From the IMG/VR virus record IMGVR_UViG_3300045988_026856, positions 1 through 44,632 of that record: 44,632 nucleotides of DNA. One strand, written 5' to 3'. This document shows, one piece after another, positions 13,665-36,905 of the stretch (positions are counted from its first letter, which is position 1; every line of letters starts with the position of its first letter). The notes under the pieces were generated by a model. It made no database searches. It was not told the origin of the DNA and saw only the letters and a program-made list of their open reading frames with translations. The stretch is from a virus. Taxonomy: Duplodnaviria > Heunggongvirae > Uroviricota > Caudoviricetes. Both the position numbers and the translations under genes were made by a program.

Positions 13665-13746
13665 TTGCCTTGCATGTTGGAATAATTTATTCTTGACATG
13701 TAAATCCGGGCGGCCCGGGTTCCAACGTCCAGGGGACATACTGACT

Positions 13747-14448
13747 ATGAATCGTTTTTTACGTTATCCGTTCCAGGAAGAAGCTGGGGCAGAAGATAAA
13801 GCCGGTGGTGGAGACGCGCCGAAAATGTTCACCGCTGAAGAAGTTCAGGCGCTGATTGAGAAAGAAGTCGCCGGGCTTAAGGCCAATCAGGAAGCGTTGC
13901 TGGCGGAGAAGAAAGAAGCCGCCCGTAAAGCAAAAGAGGCCGAAGAAGAACGTCAGCGCGCACACCAGGAGGCGTTAAAAGCCGCTGGTAAGATGGACGA
14001 GTTCGAAAAGACGATTCGTAGCCAGTATGACCCGGTGTTAGCCGAGAAAGATGGTCGCATCTCCAAAATGGCAGAGCGCATCCTCGGTAGCGAACGTAAA
14101 GCGGTGCTAGGCTCTTTCGCGGGTGACTTTATTACCCCGGAAGCAGTGGACATTCTTGCACCGTTCGTTAAGACTGAGTTCGAAGGCGATGACGTGGTTA
14201 CTAAGTTTGTCGGCGCAGATGGTAACGTAATCACGACTGACCCGGAACAGTTCCGTAAATATCTGCGTGAACACAAAGCGTTTTCGCATTTGATTAAAGC
14301 GAATGCAGCTTCCGGCGGCGGGGCTTCCGGTAGCAAAGGCGGCGGGGCCGCACAAGCGTTTAAAGACATGAGTGAAGCGGAGCGTTTAGCTCTGTACAAA
14401 TCGAACCCTGCCGAATTTGAACGGCAACTTAAAGCCCTGAGGAAATAA
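13747..14448 (+). CDS. scaffolding protein
   Basis: A/E/K-rich coiled-coil-like protein immediately upstream of the capsid gene; start refined to internal ATG. Confidence 0.55.
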   Translation: MNRFLRYPFQEEAGAEDKAGGGDAPKMFTAEEVQALIEKEVAGLKANQEALLAEKKEAARKAKEAEEERQRAHQEALKAAGKMDEFEKTIRSQYDPVLAEKDGRISKMAERILGSERKAVLGSFAGDFITPEAVDILAPFVKTEFEGDDVVTKFVGADGNVITTDPEQFRKYLREHKAFSHLIKANAASGGGASGSKGGGAAQAFKDMSEAERLALYKSNPAEFERQLKALRK

Positions 14449-14450
14449 TA

Positions 14451-15500
14451 ATGGCAATTACCACTATCGGTGACATCGTAACTGGCAACGTACCCGTCCT
14501 TCTGTCTTACATGACCGAGGACCCGGTAGAGAAAACTGCGTTCTTCCAGTCTGGTATTCTGACCCCGACTCCATACGCTGCCGAGATTGCCCGCGGCCCG
14601 TCCAACGTCGCTAATATTCCTTTCTGGAAAGCGATTGATACTTCTATCGAGCCTAACTACTCGAACGACGTATACCAGGACATCGCCACCCCGCGTAACG
14701 TGCAGACCGGCGAGATGATGGCGCGCGTTGCATACCTGAACGAAGGCTTTGGGCAGGCTGACCTGACTGTTGAACTGACCAGCCAGAACCCGCTGCAATC
14801 CGTAGCGTCGCGTCTGGACAACTTCTGGCAGCGCCAGGCGCAACGCCGTCTTATTGCTACCGCGCTCGGTTTGTACAACGACAACGTAGCCGCTACCGAC
14901 GCGTACCACGAGCAGAACGACATGGTAATCGACGTGTCCTCTACTCTGGGCTTCGATGCAGGTGCGTTCATCGACGCTACCCAGACTATGGGCGATGCGC
15001 TGATGGGCAACGGCGGTGAAGTGCTGGGTGCTATCGCGATGCACAGCTTCGTTTATGCGCAGGCCCGTAAGCAGCAGCTTATTGACTTCATCAAAGACGC
15101 CGACAACGACACACTGTTCGCCACCTACCAGGGTTACCGCGTGATTGTTGACGACAGCATGACCGTAGTCGGCACCGGCTCTAGCCGTAAGTTCATCTCC
15201 ATTATCTTCGGTAACGGCGCTATCGGTTACGGTGAAGGTTCTCCGTCCAACCCGTTGGAATACGAGCGCGAAGCGTCTCGCGGCAACGGCGGTGGGGTAG
15301 AAACCCTGTGGACCCGTAAGACCTGGTTGCTGCACCCACTGGGCTACAGCTTTACCAGCGCAGTAATCACCGGTAACGGCACCGAAACCGTCGCACGTTC
15401 TGCTTCCTGGCAGGACCTGGCGAACGCTTCCAACTGGAACCGTGTGGTTGACCGTAAGCATGTACCGATTGCCTTCCTGGTAACTGGTGTCGGTGCTTAA
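14451..15500 (+). CDS. major capsid protein
   Basis: 349 aa, position after scaffold, followed by a strong terminator. Confidence 0.65.
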   Translation: MAITTIGDIVTGNVPVLLSYMTEDPVEKTAFFQSGILTPTPYAAEIARGPSNVANIPFWKAIDTSIEPNYSNDVYQDIATPRNVQTGEMMARVAYLNEGFGQADLTVELTSQNPLQSVASRLDNFWQRQAQRRLIATALGLYNDNVAATDAYHEQNDMVIDVSSTLGFDAGAFIDATQTMGDALMGNGGEVLGAIAMHSFVYAQARKQQLIDFIKDADNDTLFATYQGYRVIVDDSMTVVGTGSSRKFISIIFGNGAIGYGEGSPSNPLEYEREASRGNGGGVETLWTRKTWLLHPLGYSFTSAVITGNGTETVARSASWQDLANASNWNRVVDRKHVPIAFLVTGVGA

Positions 15501-15516
15501 GGTTAAGATATAATCG

Positions 15517-15541
15517 AGAGGGACTTCGGTCCCTCTTTTCA
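15517..15541 (+). terminator. intrinsic terminator (AGAGGGAC-TTCG-GTCCCTCT + TTTC)
   Basis: 8-bp stem directly after the capsid stop. Confidence 0.55.
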
Positions 15542-15559
15542 TTTACTAAGAGGTAAATT

Positions 15560-24904: not shown

Positions 24905-24940
24905 TAACAAAAAAAATAAGGCCCGAAAGGGCCTTATTTA
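24905..24940. terminator. bidirectional terminator (A8-TAAGGCCC-GAAA-GGGCCTTA-TTT)
   Basis: Stem-loop flanked by A-run and T-run between convergent genes. Confidence 0.65.
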
Positions 24941-25893
24941 TGCGGAACTTTAGGCTTCACTCCGTCCCTACAAAGGGCCAAAATCTCTGGAATTATCTTA
25001 GGGTCTGAGGTTAGCATCCACTCCGTGGATCCGTCGAAGCTGCCATAGCCCCACTCATTCGACGCTATTTTGTAAGTGTTATGGAAATACACTTCTAGCA
25101 TTCGTATTTTTGCGCCGTTATCGTCGCGATGAATGCCAAGCACTTCGAAACCAAAGGGGGTAGCGTTACGCAGGTGACGTATCCGCTGTTTAGGCCTGTT
25201 TGATAACCCTATCTTCACGAATCGGCCGCATTCACTAAGTAACGCATAGAGGAACCCAGTTTTATTAGGGTCGTACCCGCTAGAGGCACATCCAGGACAT
25301 CCTTGATTCTGATGAATGATATCTGCTATTCGCTGGCTAAACTCACCATGGATATCGCAAAGCCGCACCGCTTTGCTATACTGATTCTTATACCCTCCTT
25401 CGAAGCGCAAGAACTTCCACTTATCACTCACGGCGTAAATCTGCGAGATGCGTTCCTCCTCTGAGTATGAAGGTCTTCCCGCGCAACTAGGACACCCATG
25501 TTCCTTACTAATTGCGTTAGCTATCAAAGTGTCGAACTCCCCGTGTTCGGGACAGAGCCTACGTACCTTAGAATAGGCGTTTCGATAGCCGTTAGGAAAT
25601 CCTACAAAACTGTATTGCGGGGCTACCTTAGCTAGTTCCTCTACTACATTGCTCTCAGGTTTTCGCTGTTTGCTTGATGAAGATTCTTTTCCACACCTAG
25701 GGCACCCAATACCTTTTTTAATACTAGCGGCCGTTGCCGAGAAAGCCCCATGTTCGCGGCAAAATAGGGTTATCTTACTAAACGCACCTGTATACCCCGC
25801 ACCATCGTCCAACAACTCGTATTTACCGCCGTGGTTGGCTAAATCAGCTAATATCCTCTCGCGGCGCTCAGGCCATAGTATTTTCCGGCACAT
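24934..25893 (-). CDS. three zinc-ribbon repeats fused to a C-terminal GIY-YIG-like (T5orf172-type) domain
   Basis: Three repeats of YSK..LC..HGEF...(7-9)...GCP.C; C-terminal GFLYAL...VKIGLSNRPKQRIRHL...GSTEWM; start refined to ATG at 25893 with GAGGT RBS. Confidence 0.7.
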   Translation of the reverse strand: MCRKILWPERRERILADLANHGGKYELLDDGAGYTGAFSKITLFCREHGAFSATAASIKKGIGCPRCGKESSSSKQRKPESNVVEELAKVAPQYSFVGFPNGYRNAYSKVRRLCPEHGEFDTLIANAISKEHGCPSCAGRPSYSEEERISQIYAVSDKWKFLRFEGGYKNQYSKAVRLCDIHGEFSQRIADIIHQNQGCPGCASSGYDPNKTGFLYALLSECGRFVKIGLSNRPKQRIRHLRNATPFGFEVLGIHRDDNGAKIRMLEVYFHNTYKIASNEWGYGSFDGSTEWMLTSDPKIIPEILALCRDGVKPKVPHK

Positions 25894-25923
25894 AATCAAC
25901 CTCAATAAAGAGTATTAACTAGT

Positions 25924-33461: not shown

Positions 33462-34882
33462 TTCTTACCTCGTCTCTTCATGTAATTAAGCAATTCTTCC
33501 TGGACCGATTTCTTCTCGTCAGTACGCGCGGCAACAACCTCGTCCAGCGTGTCTTTAGCAACGATGTGGTAAAGGAATACCGGGCGCTCGTGTCCCGCCT
33601 GTTTCTGGCGTACCGGGCCTATACGCTCAACGACCTGCAAATAGTGCTCAAGGTTCCAGCCTTGTGAAATAAACGCCAGATGATGCCCACCGTCCTGTAA
33701 ATTGAGGCCGTGGCCCGCTGACGCCGGATGTACGCATAAGATTTCGATTTCACCGCGGTTCCACGCTTCCATCTGCTTATTGCCCTTAGCACCTTTTGCA
33801 AACGCCTGGGCTTGAGGGAATCGCTTAAGGATACGTTCCAGTTCGTGCTTGAACTGATAGGCGACCAGTAGCGGTGCGCCCTGTAACTCCTCGACAATGG
33901 ACTCAAGCGCATCCAGTTTCGTATCGTGCACTTTCTCCCAGTCTTTGGTTGCTTCTCCGTCCGGCCCCGACACATACACGGCACCAGATGCAATCTGCAA
34001 ACACTTCGACGTCTTCGCCGCTGCGTTAGCTGCTTCAACTTCTCCGCTCTCCAGTTCTGCAAATAGCTTCTCCTCCATATCTATGTACGCCTGACGCGCT
34101 TTCTTCGGCAGGTCGATTTCAACCGGTACGATAATCGGCGCTTCACAACCGAACCACTCAGCGGCGTCAATCGTGAGACTAATGTCCTTCATCTTCTGGT
34201 GAATCTCAGTATCCGCGCCCGGGCGGGCGTGATACTCTCGTGCCATAGCGGACTTACCCTTCTGTACCGAATTAAACCAGCGGTCGGTGAACGCGGTGTA
34301 TGAAGAACCCAGGCGCTCGCCAGCGTCGATAAACCAGTTCTGGCCCCACAGGTCTTTGAGGCCATTTGGTGATGGCGTACCGGTAAGGTTGATGAAACGC
34401 TTAACCTTACCGAATGCCACTTTACTAAGCGCCTTTGCCCGCTTGCTGCCACCTGAACGGCTACGGAAAGATTTCAGTTTCGTGCTTTCATCGGCAACAA
34501 TAACCGTAAAAGGCCAGTCGTCTTTGCCGTAGTAGTCAATCAGCCACTCGATAACTTCGTAGTTAGTGCACACCACGTTAGCATCTGACTCCAGCGCCGC
34601 GATGCGGCGCTTCTCTGAACCGGTCGCATCTACGACACGCAGACACGGGAAACCCCACTTAGTTTGTTCTGAGGGCCATGTGCCGGACGCAACACGTAAA
34701 GGGGCCAGAATTAACACTCTGTCGCCGTCGTTAAGCTGACCATTACGGAACAGCCTGTTCAACGCCCACAGTACGCTGCCAGTCTTCCCGGCGCCCATGC
34801 TTGCCCAAATATTACAGCGAGGGTGCTGCAACATGAACGAAGTCATGAGCTTTTGGTACTCGCGCCTTTGGAACCTACTCAT
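33458..34882 (-). CDS. SF2 (SNF2/DEAD-like) helicase
   Basis: Walker A GAGKTG and DEST box (VIVADESTKLK). Confidence 0.8.
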   Translation of the reverse strand: MSRFQRREYQKLMTSFMLQHPRCNIWASMGAGKTGSVLWALNRLFRNGQLNDGDRVLILAPLRVASGTWPSEQTKWGFPCLRVVDATGSEKRRIAALESDANVVCTNYEVIEWLIDYYGKDDWPFTVIVADESTKLKSFRSRSGGSKRAKALSKVAFGKVKRFINLTGTPSPNGLKDLWGQNWFIDAGERLGSSYTAFTDRWFNSVQKGKSAMAREYHARPGADTEIHQKMKDISLTIDAAEWFGCEAPIIVPVEIDLPKKARQAYIDMEEKLFAELESGEVEAANAAAKTSKCLQIASGAVYVSGPDGEATKDWEKVHDTKLDALESIVEELQGAPLLVAYQFKHELERILKRFPQAQAFAKGAKGNKQMEAWNRGEIEILCVHPASAGHGLNLQDGGHHLAFISQGWNLEHYLQVVERIGPVRQKQAGHERPVFLYHIVAKDTLDEVVAARTDEKKSVQEELLNYMKRRGKK

Positions 34883-35669
34883 TTACCGCCCCCATGAATG
34901 CCTTTATAAATTCAGCGGCTACTTGCGGGACGATGGCATTGCCGTAACCGCGCAATCGTCCCACTCTGGCGGGTACCCCATTAGCCAGCGGGAATGTGCT
35001 GGGTTCAACTGGCCTGAATTTCCCATCCCGGCATCCGAGCCAGTCAGCATCTGACCAGAACCCGTTAGGCGGATTGGCTGTGCCAGAGATGCCTCTGTTT
35101 GCAGATTGTGGCCCCCGTTCCTGCCCTGATGGCCTGCTCCCGCCGAGTTGTTCGCACACGGTGTTGGCCAGTTGCTGCGCTCCGAAGAACAATCGATTCC
35201 TTTTGTGCGGTGCGCCGACGCTACAAGCTGGGAGTACGGCAAACCCGACGGCGTAGTCTTCTCTTTCCAGGTGAGTTTGTAAATCGCACATCCACGATTT
35301 TGCAATTGCTGCCGCAACCTGCTCCCCAAAGATAACTGGAGGGCGGCACTCGCTGATGAGGTCGAGGAACACAGGTGCGAGGTGTCTCTGGTCGAACTGT
35401 CCGAGTTGCTTTCCTGCCGTGCTAAACGGTTGGCAAGGCGGGCTTCCCGTCCAGAGAGGCGCATCTTCCGGAACTCCAGCAAGTCTGAGCGCGAGAGGCC
35501 AGCCGCCGATACCAGCGAAAAAATGACACTGGGTGAACCCGTCAAGGTCTTCTGGTCTAACTTCGGTAATGCTTCTTTCATCTACAACTCCAAAAGGTAT
35601 GTGACCCTGTTTTATTAATTCACGCAGCCACGCGGCTGCGCCTTTATCCCATTCGTTGTAATAGTTCAT
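34875..35669 (-). CDS. DNA (cytosine-5)-methyltransferase, orphan
   Basis: Motif I FAGIGG, motif IV PCQPFS, HKRNR, C-terminal GNAIVPQV; no restriction partner nearby. Confidence 0.8.
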
Positions 35670-35857
35670 TTTGCCACCAGAACTAACTCTTTACGCCCGA
35701 ACGCTGTAACATTGCCTGTTACATCTTCGATGACCAGTTTACCGTTCGACTCGACGAACACCGTATCAACGGCAACAGGACGACGGGTCTTAACGCTGAA
35801 AATCATGTCGCCCGGTACGATGTCACGTGCTGGCTTGCGGTCATATTCGTGTTTCAT
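35666..35857 (-). CDS. hypothetical protein (63 aa)
   Basis: ORF track; ATGA-coupled. Confidence 0.45.
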   Translation of the reverse strand: MKHEYDRKPARDIVPGDMIFSVKTRRPVAVDTVFVESNGKLVIEDVTGNVTAFGRKELVLVAK

Positions 35858-36256: not shown

Positions 36257-36388
36257 TCATTCCGGCACCCACAGATAAATTGCGATGAACATACCCAATA
36301 CGGCTACCATCATGCCGTATTGCCCCTCGTGACAGTAGACACCGGCGGCGAATCCCGCCAGTACCGCGATACTTAGTTTACTTAGCAT
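36257..36388 (-). CDS. small membrane protein (43 aa)
   Basis: ATG after GGAGG RBS; hydrophobic. Confidence 0.35.
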   Translation of the reverse strand: MLSKLSIAVLAGFAAGVYCHEGQYGMMVAVLGMFIAIYLWVPE

Positions 36389-36389
36389 T

Positions 36390-36905
36390 CTAACCTCCGT
36401 GATTCTCATGAAAGCCGTAGCGAACAATCGCAGATTTCCGTGCACAAGCCGCGTCAAATATATTGTCATGATGCCCCAGGAATATAAGTTTACCACCAAC
36501 AAATATACATGCTTTCCATTTAGCCGCTCGTGCGTTCCAGTGCACACCTGTGATACCTGACTTGTTATCTTTTCTCCGAGATGCGTTTCTGTTGTTATCA
36601 GTACGGGATACTTTACGAAGGTTGCATGCACGATTATCATCCAGGATGTGATTTATATGGTCTACTTCATCGTCAGGCCCTAAACGGTCATTGTTATGCA
36701 TCTCCCACGCGATGCGATTAGCCCTGTAACTAACCCCTCTGACGACGATACAGATGTAGCCCCTCTTACTTGGGCTACCGGCTTCGTCTCCGGCGTTTAT
36801 ACTGTGCCTCGGGGAATACTTCCATCGTATCTTCCCCGTGTCAGGTTCGTAGTAGAAATGGTCATGCCAATTAATTAAATCTCTCATAAACCACCCCATC
36901 ATCAT
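36390..36905 (-). CDS. HNH homing endonuclease with AP2-like DNA-binding domain
   Basis: VDHINHILDDNRACNLRKVSRTDNN HNH motif; GITGVHWNARAAKWKA...GKLIFLG AP2-like. Confidence 0.8.
   Translation of the reverse strand: MMMGWFMRDLINWHDHFYYEPDTGKIRWKYSPRHSINAGDEAGSPSKRGYICIVVRGVSYRANRIAWEMHNNDRLGPDDEVDHINHILDDNRACNLRKVSRTDNNRNASRRKDNKSGITGVHWNARAAKWKACIFVGGKLIFLGHHDNIFDAACARKSAIVRYGFHENHGG

Follow-up and report, generated by a model that had tools for sequence, protein, structure and literature searches.

A putative two-subunit cytosine-5 DNA methyltransferase specified by two overlapping reading frames of a Kagunavirus gene

We analyzed IMG/VR record IMGVR_UViG_3300045988_026856, a Caudoviricetes virus sequence of 44,632 nucleotides (nt) that is referred to below, as a whole, as the window. 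The gene in question, at positions 34875 to 35669, had been described in an initial annotation as an orphan cytosine-5 (C5) DNA methyltransferase of the replication module. Two long open reading frames (ORFs) lie on the same strand of this gene. Frame A is the annotated ORF, and its product is called alpha; frame B is a second ORF nested in the +1 frame, and its product is called beta. Several lines of evidence suggest that both frames are coding and that alpha and beta may be the two subunits of one enzyme. The window region is 99.2% identical to Escherichia phage vB_EcoS_fTaEco03 (fTaEco03), and many other Kagunavirus (Guernseyvirinae) phages show 93-98% identity to it; judged from its sequence, the window is a Kagunavirus genome, that of an E. 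coli phage.

The catalytic frame

Frame A is an ATG-started ORF of 264 amino acids (aa) in the ORF list, with exactly the coordinates given by the initial annotation (34875..35669); it lies on the minus strand, which that annotation did not state. Its assignment to the C5 methyltransferases is confirmed by sequence, profile, and structural matches. Alpha matches Pfam PF00145 (E=1.9e-16; 60.9 bits against a cut-off of 22), which covers residues 71-163 only, phrog_363 over its full length (E=1e-83), and M.HhaI in a phmmer search (E=5.7e-8). The alpha family profile aligns with M.HhaI in hhalign over motifs I to VIII (E=7.7e-13), with alpha 40-182 on HhaI 7-179. The AlphaFold model of alpha (predicted local distance difference test [pLDDT] score, 73.8) has a confident core, and its best Foldseek matches in the PDB are all C5 methyltransferases (HhaI, HaeIII, and DNMT2 among them), with E values of ~1e-7. 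The four motif strings reported earlier were all found in the translation, and their coordinates were checked. Motif I aligns with FAGLGG of HhaI, and motif IV reads PPCQPFS at residues 77-83. The features of frame A, with the evidence for each in parentheses, are as follows (AdoMet, S-adenosylmethionine; omega_A and omega_B, ratios of nonsynonymous to synonymous substitution [dN/dS] in frames A and B).

34875..35669, minus strand: putative alpha subunit, 264 aa, with a II/III-like segment, motifs I, IV, VI, and VIII, a spacer, a hairpin block, and motif X (ORF and homology)
35535..35669, minus strand: alpha residues 1-45 (MNYYNEWDK...), a II/III-like strand-helix-strand (beta-alpha-beta) unit ahead of motif I (hhalign gap, phmmer, TIGR00675, and model)
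35502..35519, minus strand: motif I, FAGIGG, AdoMet binding, alpha 51-56 (translation; invariant in 68 homologues)
35430..35441, minus strand: motif IV, PPCQ, alpha 77-80, with catalytic Cys79 (translation; P78, C79, and Q80 invariant in the 68 homologues)
35316..35330, minus strand: motif VI, FGEQV, the ENV equivalent (translation; aligned to HhaI FMENV)
35193..35216, minus strand: motif VIII, GAPHKRNR, the QxRxR equivalent, alpha 152-159 (aligned to HhaI GIPQKRER)
35070..35177, minus strand: alpha spacer, residues 165-200, at the usual position of the target-recognition domain (omega_A, pLDDT, and stop counts)
34920..34943, minus strand: motif X, GNAIVPQV, alpha 243-250, followed by a C-terminal helix (profile alignment; confident helix at 248-263)

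The N terminus of alpha is circularly permuted, giving the order II/III-I-IV-VI-VIII-spacer-X rather than the collinear order I-II-III-IV, which alpha does not have. Several observations lead to this order. The hhalign alignment with M.HhaI leaves a 35-residue gap in alpha that coincides exactly with the motif II-III segment of HhaI (34-68); a segment resembling the missing one (HhaI YSNEWDK...GDITQV) is formed by the first 39 residues of alpha (YYNEWDK...), and phmmer pairs YYNEWDK with YSNEWDK; the alignment to the NCBIfam dcm model TIGR00675 begins at alpha residue 3 and profile position 25; and in the model of alpha a strand (2-5), a helix (9-20), and a second strand (27-30) precede the motif I strand (47-50). 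A relative from a Lacticaseibacillus phage has the canonical order, with the II/III segment in its usual place.

At the other end of the protein, the model of alpha falls below a pLDDT of 50 at the spacer (171-208) and again at 225-241. The spacer is of low complexity, neutral, and predicted to be disordered, and it is kept without stop codons. The key motifs, all of which had been said to be present, are thus only partly accounted for by this ORF: motifs I, IV, VI, VIII, and X stand, II-III are displaced to the N terminus, and neither motif IX nor a target-recognition domain is found in the frame A polypeptide.

The nested frame and the selection on it

Frame B (34919..35581, minus strand) is an ORF of 220 aa in the +1 frame relative to alpha and lies wholly inside the alpha gene. 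Over its second half, the translation has the look of a genuine protein. Beta has family matches only among PHROGs whose members are themselves nested ORFs of this type; the match to phrog_1008 has E=2e-52. GenBank labels for its relatives are “putative Mte8-like protein” in K1ind1 and “putative methyltransferase” in fTaEco03; the origin of the name Mte8 was looked for and could not be traced. Beta was found in the +1 frame at all 165 loci that were retrieved from viral and bacterial collections by frame-B patterns. Because such retrieval is circular for frame B, a second set of viral loci was retrieved by frame-A motifs I and IV only, and a beta homologue again occupied the +1 frame in 80 of 80. 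The median open length in these 80 loci is 271 codons in the +1 frame and 61 in the +2 frame. The features of frame B are as follows.

34919..35581, minus strand: putative beta subunit, 220 aa (ORF; phrog_1008; annotated in K1ind1 and fTaEco03; 165/165 and 80/80 loci)
35588..35591, minus strand: GGAG, a Shine-Dalgarno-like site 6 nt 5' of the beta ATG at 35579..35581 (sequence)
35363..35581, minus strand: beta residues 1-73, a Ser/Ala/Gly-rich leader over alpha motifs I-VI, nearly unconstrained but open (omega_B 0.83; pLDDT <50)
35204..35356, minus strand: TWK block, beta residues 76-126, a helix followed by a beta-hairpin, dual-coded with alpha VI-VIII (pLDDT 71-86)
35078..35170, minus strand: the single “WPTP” module of the window's beta, a variable cassette (omega_B 0.09 versus omega_A 0.90)
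34958..35008, minus strand: putative motif IX in beta, compare M.HhaI LHPRECARVMGYPDSYK (profile alignment, E=0.006)

In the model of the TWK block, a helix (76-95) is followed by two strands (101-109 and 115-123); elsewhere in beta the WPTP module is of low confidence, and short helices are found at 194-200 and 205-210. The first ATG of beta is at a conserved position, at a median of 102 aa ahead of the TWK motif (interquartile range, 96-104), and in the window it arises from GAT GAA within the conserved V-D-E-R-S motif of alpha. A strong Shine-Dalgarno motif precedes the first beta ATG in 46% of 179 loci, compared with 6% of control windows. From these sequence signals, beta appears to initiate independently within the alpha gene.

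Selection was estimated in both frames by an overlap-aware dN/dS in the style of OLGenie (dNN/dSN for frame A and dNN/dNS for frame B), using 74 phylogenetically independent pairs and bootstrap intervals. The estimator was home-made and was run on ungapped high-scoring segment pairs, and some of the loci came via frame-B patterns, which affects two short sites and not the modules. The values by region were as follows (CI, confidence interval).

N-terminal region (motifs I-VI): omega_A 0.12, omega_B 0.83
TWK block: omega_A 0.27, omega_B 0.46
WPTP modules: omega_A 0.90 (CI 0.66-1.19), omega_B 0.09 (CI 0.07-0.12)
Motif IX block: omega_A 0.47, omega_B 0.30
Tail: omega_A 0.13, omega_B 0.65

It follows that the two frames take turns under selection. 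Frame A is the sole constrained reading at motifs I-VI and X, frame B is the sole constrained reading between motif VIII and the C-terminal block, and both are constrained at the two junction blocks. Codon positions give a similar picture. In 64 frame-A-retrieved sequences of <70% identity, frame A has degenerate third codon positions across alpha 1-100 (0.2-0.8 bits); at alpha 121-135 and 223-235, which lie under frame-B “Y.LTWK” and “LNP..S.WLMG.P”, its third positions are conserved as much as or more than first positions. The codon-position profile was initially made with frame-B-retrieved loci, which inflates those sites; the rerun on frame-A-retrieved loci gave the same result.

The distribution of stop codons was examined in 79 frame-A-retrieved genes. 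Stops in the +1 frame are common at alpha 0-35, absent at 70-229, and present again from ~230, mostly past 250, and the +2 frame has stops throughout. The number expected in the +1 frame was obtained by resampling the synonymous codons of frame A according to the codon usage of the gene concerned.

Alpha 41-100: 7 stops observed, 52 expected
Alpha 101-165: 0 observed, 121 expected
Alpha spacer: 0 observed, 59 expected
Alpha 201-235: 0 observed, 36 expected

For the window gene alone, a +1 frame of at least 220 open codons arose in 4 of 3000 synonymous resamples. The converse test, synonymous resampling of frame B in 142 loci, gave 1 stop observed in the alpha spacer against 328 expected, with a mean chance of 0.11 per locus of the spacer being open. 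The alpha spacer is neutral and yet stop-free, and the C terminus of alpha must therefore be translated in continuity with its N terminus. The evidence for beta is wholly evolutionary and structural-predictive; taken together, it makes it almost certain that frame B is a genuine, selected coding sequence.

Division of the motifs and the two-subunit interpretation

Within M.HhaI, the beta family profile finds a single matching stretch, motif IX at residues 272-290 (RKLHPRECARVMGYPDSYK). PF00145 is blind to the C-terminal parts, and a full alpha-beta-alpha chimera scores 63 bits against it, no better than alpha alone (60.9 bits); Pfam therefore cannot place motif IX, and hhalign to a canonical IX-X alignment was used instead, the reference being five sequences (HhaI, HaeIII, Dcm, DNMT2, and DNMT3A) assembled by hand. 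The beta profile aligns to motif IX of this reference (E=0.006) and the alpha profile (234-256) to motif X (E=0.022). The two alignments are mutually exclusive, neither protein aligning to the motif of the other. The enzyme, described in the initial annotation as an orphan with all key motifs, is not self-contained in frame A: the stretch from VIII to X is neutral and predicted to be disordered there, and the modules at the recognition position and motif IX lie in the nested ORF, which that annotation had overlooked.

A precedent for such an arrangement exists. M.EcoHK31I, from E. coli HK31, was reportedly described by Lee, Kam, and Shaw in 1995. Nearly all characterized C5 methyltransferases are monomeric, the two-polypeptide exceptions being M.AquI and M.EcoHK31I, according to a 2012 paper (PMC3404938). 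The beta chain of M.EcoHK31I, which bears motif IX, is specified by a different frame that lies wholly within the alpha gene, and both chains are required for activity (PMC2836561, PMC3404938); N-terminal deletions of its beta weaken association with alpha (PMC2836561). The architectural features that define this type are found here: a nested same-strand ORF in another frame, evolutionary evidence that the nested ORF is coding, and motif IX in beta with motifs I-VIII and X in alpha.

We propose that one stretch of DNA read in two frames would give rise to a two-subunit C5 methyltransferase. Alpha would supply the AdoMet-binding catalytic domain, in which a spacer of arbitrary sequence would bridge motif VIII and the C-terminal part, made up of the hairpin and motif X. 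Beta would be translated from its own Shine-Dalgarno site and ATG inside the alpha gene and would consist of a disordered leader, the helix-hairpin TWK block, at least one WPTP module of ~40 aa, and motif IX. The two chains would associate as in M.EcoHK31I, with beta as the small DNA-recognition domain and alpha as the large catalytic domain. The enzyme might then methylate phage DNA while it is being replicated, the recognized sequences might change as modules of beta are gained, lost, or exchanged, and the benefit would be protection from some host restriction enzymes. On the combined analysis, we consider it probable that the locus encodes a two-subunit C5 methyltransferase in which alpha and beta form an EcoHK31I-like heterodimer. 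Several points weigh against this. The motif IX and X assignments are short alignments of modest significance to a small, hand-assembled reference, and PF00145 recognizes neither C terminus, whether in alpha, in beta, or in a chimera of beta IX and alpha X. Beta alone is modelled poorly (pLDDT 52.7), with much of it predicted to be disordered, and it has no significant match in Pfam, NCBIfam, or the PDB, by sequence or by profile.

A simpler explanation would be an ordinary single-polypeptide orphan C5 methyltransferase, the +1 ORF being a nonfunctional shadow of composition or of frame-A constraint. Frame A is a full-length phrog_363 member with a confident methyltransferase core, some frame-B conservation is forced by frame A (LANLS.RQAK lies under CPCQPFSAAGK), and omega_B is near 1 in the N-terminal third. 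This explanation is made very improbable, however, by the contrast, over the very same modules, between an omega_B of 0.09 and an omega_A of 0.90, by 0 stops in the +1 frame against 216 expected over ~160 codons in the 79 genes, by conserved frame-A third positions at the TWK and IX blocks in the frame-B-independent set, and by Shine-Dalgarno enrichment at a positionally conserved ATG; moreover, frame A has a disordered spacer at the recognition-domain position and no motif IX. A single chain could also be assembled by programmed ribosomal frameshifting, from alpha to beta after motif VIII and back to alpha before motif X. The stitched frames would yield the canonical order of VIII, recognition domain, IX, and X, with the frame-B motif IX ending within ~7 codons of the start of the frame-A motif X alignment, but the ribosome would have to shift twice, in order. 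Where alpha VI-VIII and the beta TWK block share the same DNA, selection acts on both frames, and both readings must therefore be produced there; in addition, the ~100 codons of frame B that precede any useful shift site are kept open, back to the conserved ATG and Shine-Dalgarno site, and frame A is likewise kept open across the entire spacer, although a frameshifted product could dispense with that reading. Frameshifting is not needed to explain the locus and is quite improbable.

Beta could be a genuine protein whose function has nothing to do with the methylation carried out by alpha, e.g., an anti-defense or DNA-binding factor, overprinted on a methyltransferase gene. Its lack of a significant match to any known domain or structure, the extent of its predicted disorder, its up to ~9 repeats per protein, and the continuation of the beta frame of Edwardsiella phage eiAU-183 into a Dam-like gene would all be compatible with this, and ~9 repeats are, to our knowledge, more than the recognition domains of known multispecific methyltransferases. 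Such a role is nevertheless unlikely, given that the C-terminal block of beta aligns to C5 motif IX, the one motif that alpha lacks, that the selected modules sit exactly at the neutral spacer of alpha, i.e., at the recognition-domain position, that beta is never apart from alpha in 245 loci, and that the experimentally characterized EcoHK31I pair has the same layout. The enzyme might alternatively install a nonmethyl C5 modification, such as a carboxymethyl group, and so be a hypermodification enzyme; among solved structures, the one that the alpha model matches best is indeed a DNA cytosine C5-carboxymethyltransferase (8yf3; E=1.5e-7). The scores of M.HaeIII, M.HhaI, and DNMT2 are practically equal, though, identity to 8yf3 is just 16%, and no cofactor-synthesis gene was found among the annotated ORFs, which cover the replication module and a few other sites, small ORFs excepted, and reach only a minor part of the head and tail modules. 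Hypermodification is thus exceedingly improbable.

Compared by published descriptions, the two-subunit enzyme proposed here resembles M.EcoHK31I in being a two-polypeptide C5 methyltransferase with the beta ORF nested in the alpha gene, in having a beta with a poorly defined N-terminal part, and in its use of internal start codons (PMC2836561, PMC3404938). It differs in that the recognition domain of EcoHK31I is assigned to alpha, whereas here that part of alpha is a neutral spacer predicted to be disordered and it is beta that holds the selected, variable modules; in the circular permutation of alpha, with II/III ahead of I; in the variable number of ~40-aa WPTP repeats in beta across the family; and in context, as EcoHK31I is part of a restriction-modification system and the window gene is a phage orphan. 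M.AquI of Agmenellum quadruplicatum (Karreman and de Waard 1990, cited in PMC3404938) consists of two associating polypeptides with the break in the variable region and is likewise a C5 methyltransferase naturally split in two; its split is serial, however: its beta does not run nested along the full gene, and it is beta that carries motif X, which here is in alpha. M.HhaI, M.HaeIII, and Dcm share with the present enzyme the catalytic fold, motifs I, IV, VI, VIII, and X, and the motif IX pattern LxPxExxxLMG(F/Y)P, but each is one polypeptide, collinear from I to X, with a folded recognition domain in the same frame.

The orphan multispecific C5 methyltransferases of Bacillus phages SPR, phi3T, and rho11s are single polypeptides encoded in one frame, with tandem modules of ~40-50 aa between motifs VIII and IX, each with one target specificity, that can be added, lost, or exchanged. 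Tandem exchangeable modules between VIII and IX are also found here, but in the +1 frame relative to the catalytic motifs, and we know of no WPTP motif in modules of the SPR/phi3T type. What is known is the EcoHK31I-type nested design; the present locus differs from it by the permutation of alpha, the selected variable region in beta, and the repeat modules. We found no paper describing the nested layout in phage methyltransferases, and the nested ORF itself has been in GenBank since the K1 phage genomes and is in PHROGs.

Distribution, role, and gene neighborhood

An exhaustive database search recovered beta homologues in 18,877 clusters at 50% identity. The +1 layout is seen in phages of Burkholderia, Xanthomonas, Pseudomonas, Edwardsiella, Rhodobacter, Tunturiibacter, and Lacticaseibacillus, and beta without alpha was not found in any of the 245 loci of the two retrievals. 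Relatives with canonical motif order, mostly from Firmicutes-type phage contigs, carry a +1 ORF of at least 150 open codons in 62 of 80 loci, with the motif IX pattern mostly present; the layout is therefore not tied to the permutation. Beta hits in Rhodobacter and Tunturiibacter phages were considered as single-frame versions and rejected, since they have the same nested layout and the annotator had chosen the beta frame. Long database members were likewise considered as alpha-beta fusions and rejected, being beta proteins with more modules.

Three kinds of locus depart from the usual arrangement. P0113, a 286-aa database protein from a 42-kb Kagunavirus-like contig, has the beta frame at its start and the alpha C terminus at its end, and it is most likely a frameshifted assembly or variant. 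A group of IMG/VR contigs (L314-L329; e.g., L315, 1150..2500) holds distant canonical relatives in which motifs I-VIII are in one frame that stops after ~195 codons and the recognition domain and motifs IX and X follow downstream in the +2 frame, unlike the nested arrangement; these may be AquI-like serial splits or pseudogenes. In Edwardsiella phage eiAU-183 (L006, KF772234; 1264..2688), the beta frame lacks its usual stop and forms a stop-to-stop frame of 475 codons that extends, with no change of frame, through the next gene downstream, which bears an N-6-adenine methyltransferase (Dam-like) annotation; this may be a natural beta-Dam fusion or merely a missing stop.

In GenBank, annotators and gene callers have settled on beta for some genomes and on alpha for the rest (FoX4 [L004] and Tunturi_1 [L249] versus BcepC6B [L003], eiAU-183 [L006], and R9.1 [L007]), and either frame gets called “DNA methyltransferase” in the records. 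As a result of this inconsistent choice, two unrelated protein families are mixed under one database name. A more far-reaching reading, which we advance only tentatively, is that the nested layout is the obligatory and ancient architecture of a very large class of “Dcm-like” methyltransferases of phages and prophages (18,877 beta clusters, permuted and canonical forms, and Gram-negative and Gram-positive hosts), in which most “single orphans” would be alpha/beta heterodimers and the WPTP repeats would be exchangeable recognition cassettes. On this reading, module shuffling in one frame would let phages alter their methylation specificity or add to it, with the other frame serving as a read-through spacer. 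If the layout is as proposed, the nested-gene design of M.EcoHK31I, treated as a curiosity, would be common in phages, and standard annotation, in which nested same-strand genes are disallowed, would drop half of each enzyme or name the halves inconsistently. The locus also represents a clean natural long overlap (~220 codons here and >300 elsewhere), conserved across phages of distantly related hosts, and its segment-by-segment switching of selection between frames makes it a useful test case for methods that detect overlapping genes.

The number of “W.TP” modules ranges from 0 to 7 (mode, 2) in a set of 300 beta proteins; the modules have a median length of 40 aa, and most of them belong to one homologous repeat family; longer beta proteins in the databases have up to ~9. 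Closely related Kagunavirus phages differ in module identity and number, with beta ranging from 220 to 342 aa, and the window phage has the minimal form, with one module. A Golestan-like phage has 217 nt in place of window positions 35078..35159, and the sequence on either side is 90-92% identical. It is conceivable, at somewhat less than even odds in our view of the analysis, that the WPTP modules determine target specificity. The differences in modules between near-identical phages offer a direct route to what sets the target sequence, and any expression, deletion, or recoding of the gene, or prediction of phage methylation specificity, must respect both frames.

Phage orphan methyltransferases usually serve to methylate phage DNA against restriction. 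The prospect that the window methyltransferase has an anti-restriction role is, on present analysis, about evenly balanced. Five BASEL isolates (Bas70, 72, 73, and 74 being named) match the window gene at ~97% identity, and the BASEL Kagunavirus isolates are reported to be highly sensitive to the restriction-modification systems tested (PMC11990801), which tells against such a role. Given that sensitivity, any protection would be narrow and limited to sites or systems outside that panel. Self-methylation to evade host restriction, as put forward in the initial annotation, is accordingly not supported as stated and is at most something that we infer. Kagunavirus genomes have been said to be attractive for synthetic biology (PMC11990801).

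The gene lies among a SNF2 helicase, a small ORF with unknown function, a VRR-NUC nuclease, an HNH-AP2 endonuclease, and a family A DNA polymerase. Its placement in the replication module is supported, and no restriction endonuclease was found among the neighboring genes by Pfam and PHROG annotation, as the initial annotation had also claimed. The start of the gene overlaps the stop of an upstream 63-aa ORF (35666..35857) through ATGA, and its 3' end overlaps the start of the SNF2 helicase gene (34882) by 8 nt, AATGAGTAG; the overlaps at both ends are thus present and are suggestive of the translational coupling between helicase and small ORF that had been proposed.

Some other features of the window were also recorded. 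A 529-aa ATG-started ORF (13953..15542, minus strand) lies antisense to the genes for the head scaffolding protein (13693..14448, plus strand) and the major head protein (14451..15500, plus strand); it has no PHROG match and is therefore probably a shadow ORF, though an unusually long one. The HNH-AP2 endonuclease gene (36390..36905, minus strand; 171 aa) lies between the VRR-NUC and DNA polymerase genes at a site that holds just three tiny ORFs in the 99%-identical fTaEco03, and it looks like a homing-endonuclease insertion. A 127-aa ORF (36257..36640, minus strand) overlaps the 3' part of the HNH-AP2 gene; its match to phrog_10404 (E=3e-28) is limited to the last 43 residues, and the genuine gene is probably this short C-terminal part. 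A second HNH-type endonuclease ORF (24934..25905, minus strand; 323 aa; phrog_681/559) lies in a region where the surrounding long ORFs are on the plus strand.

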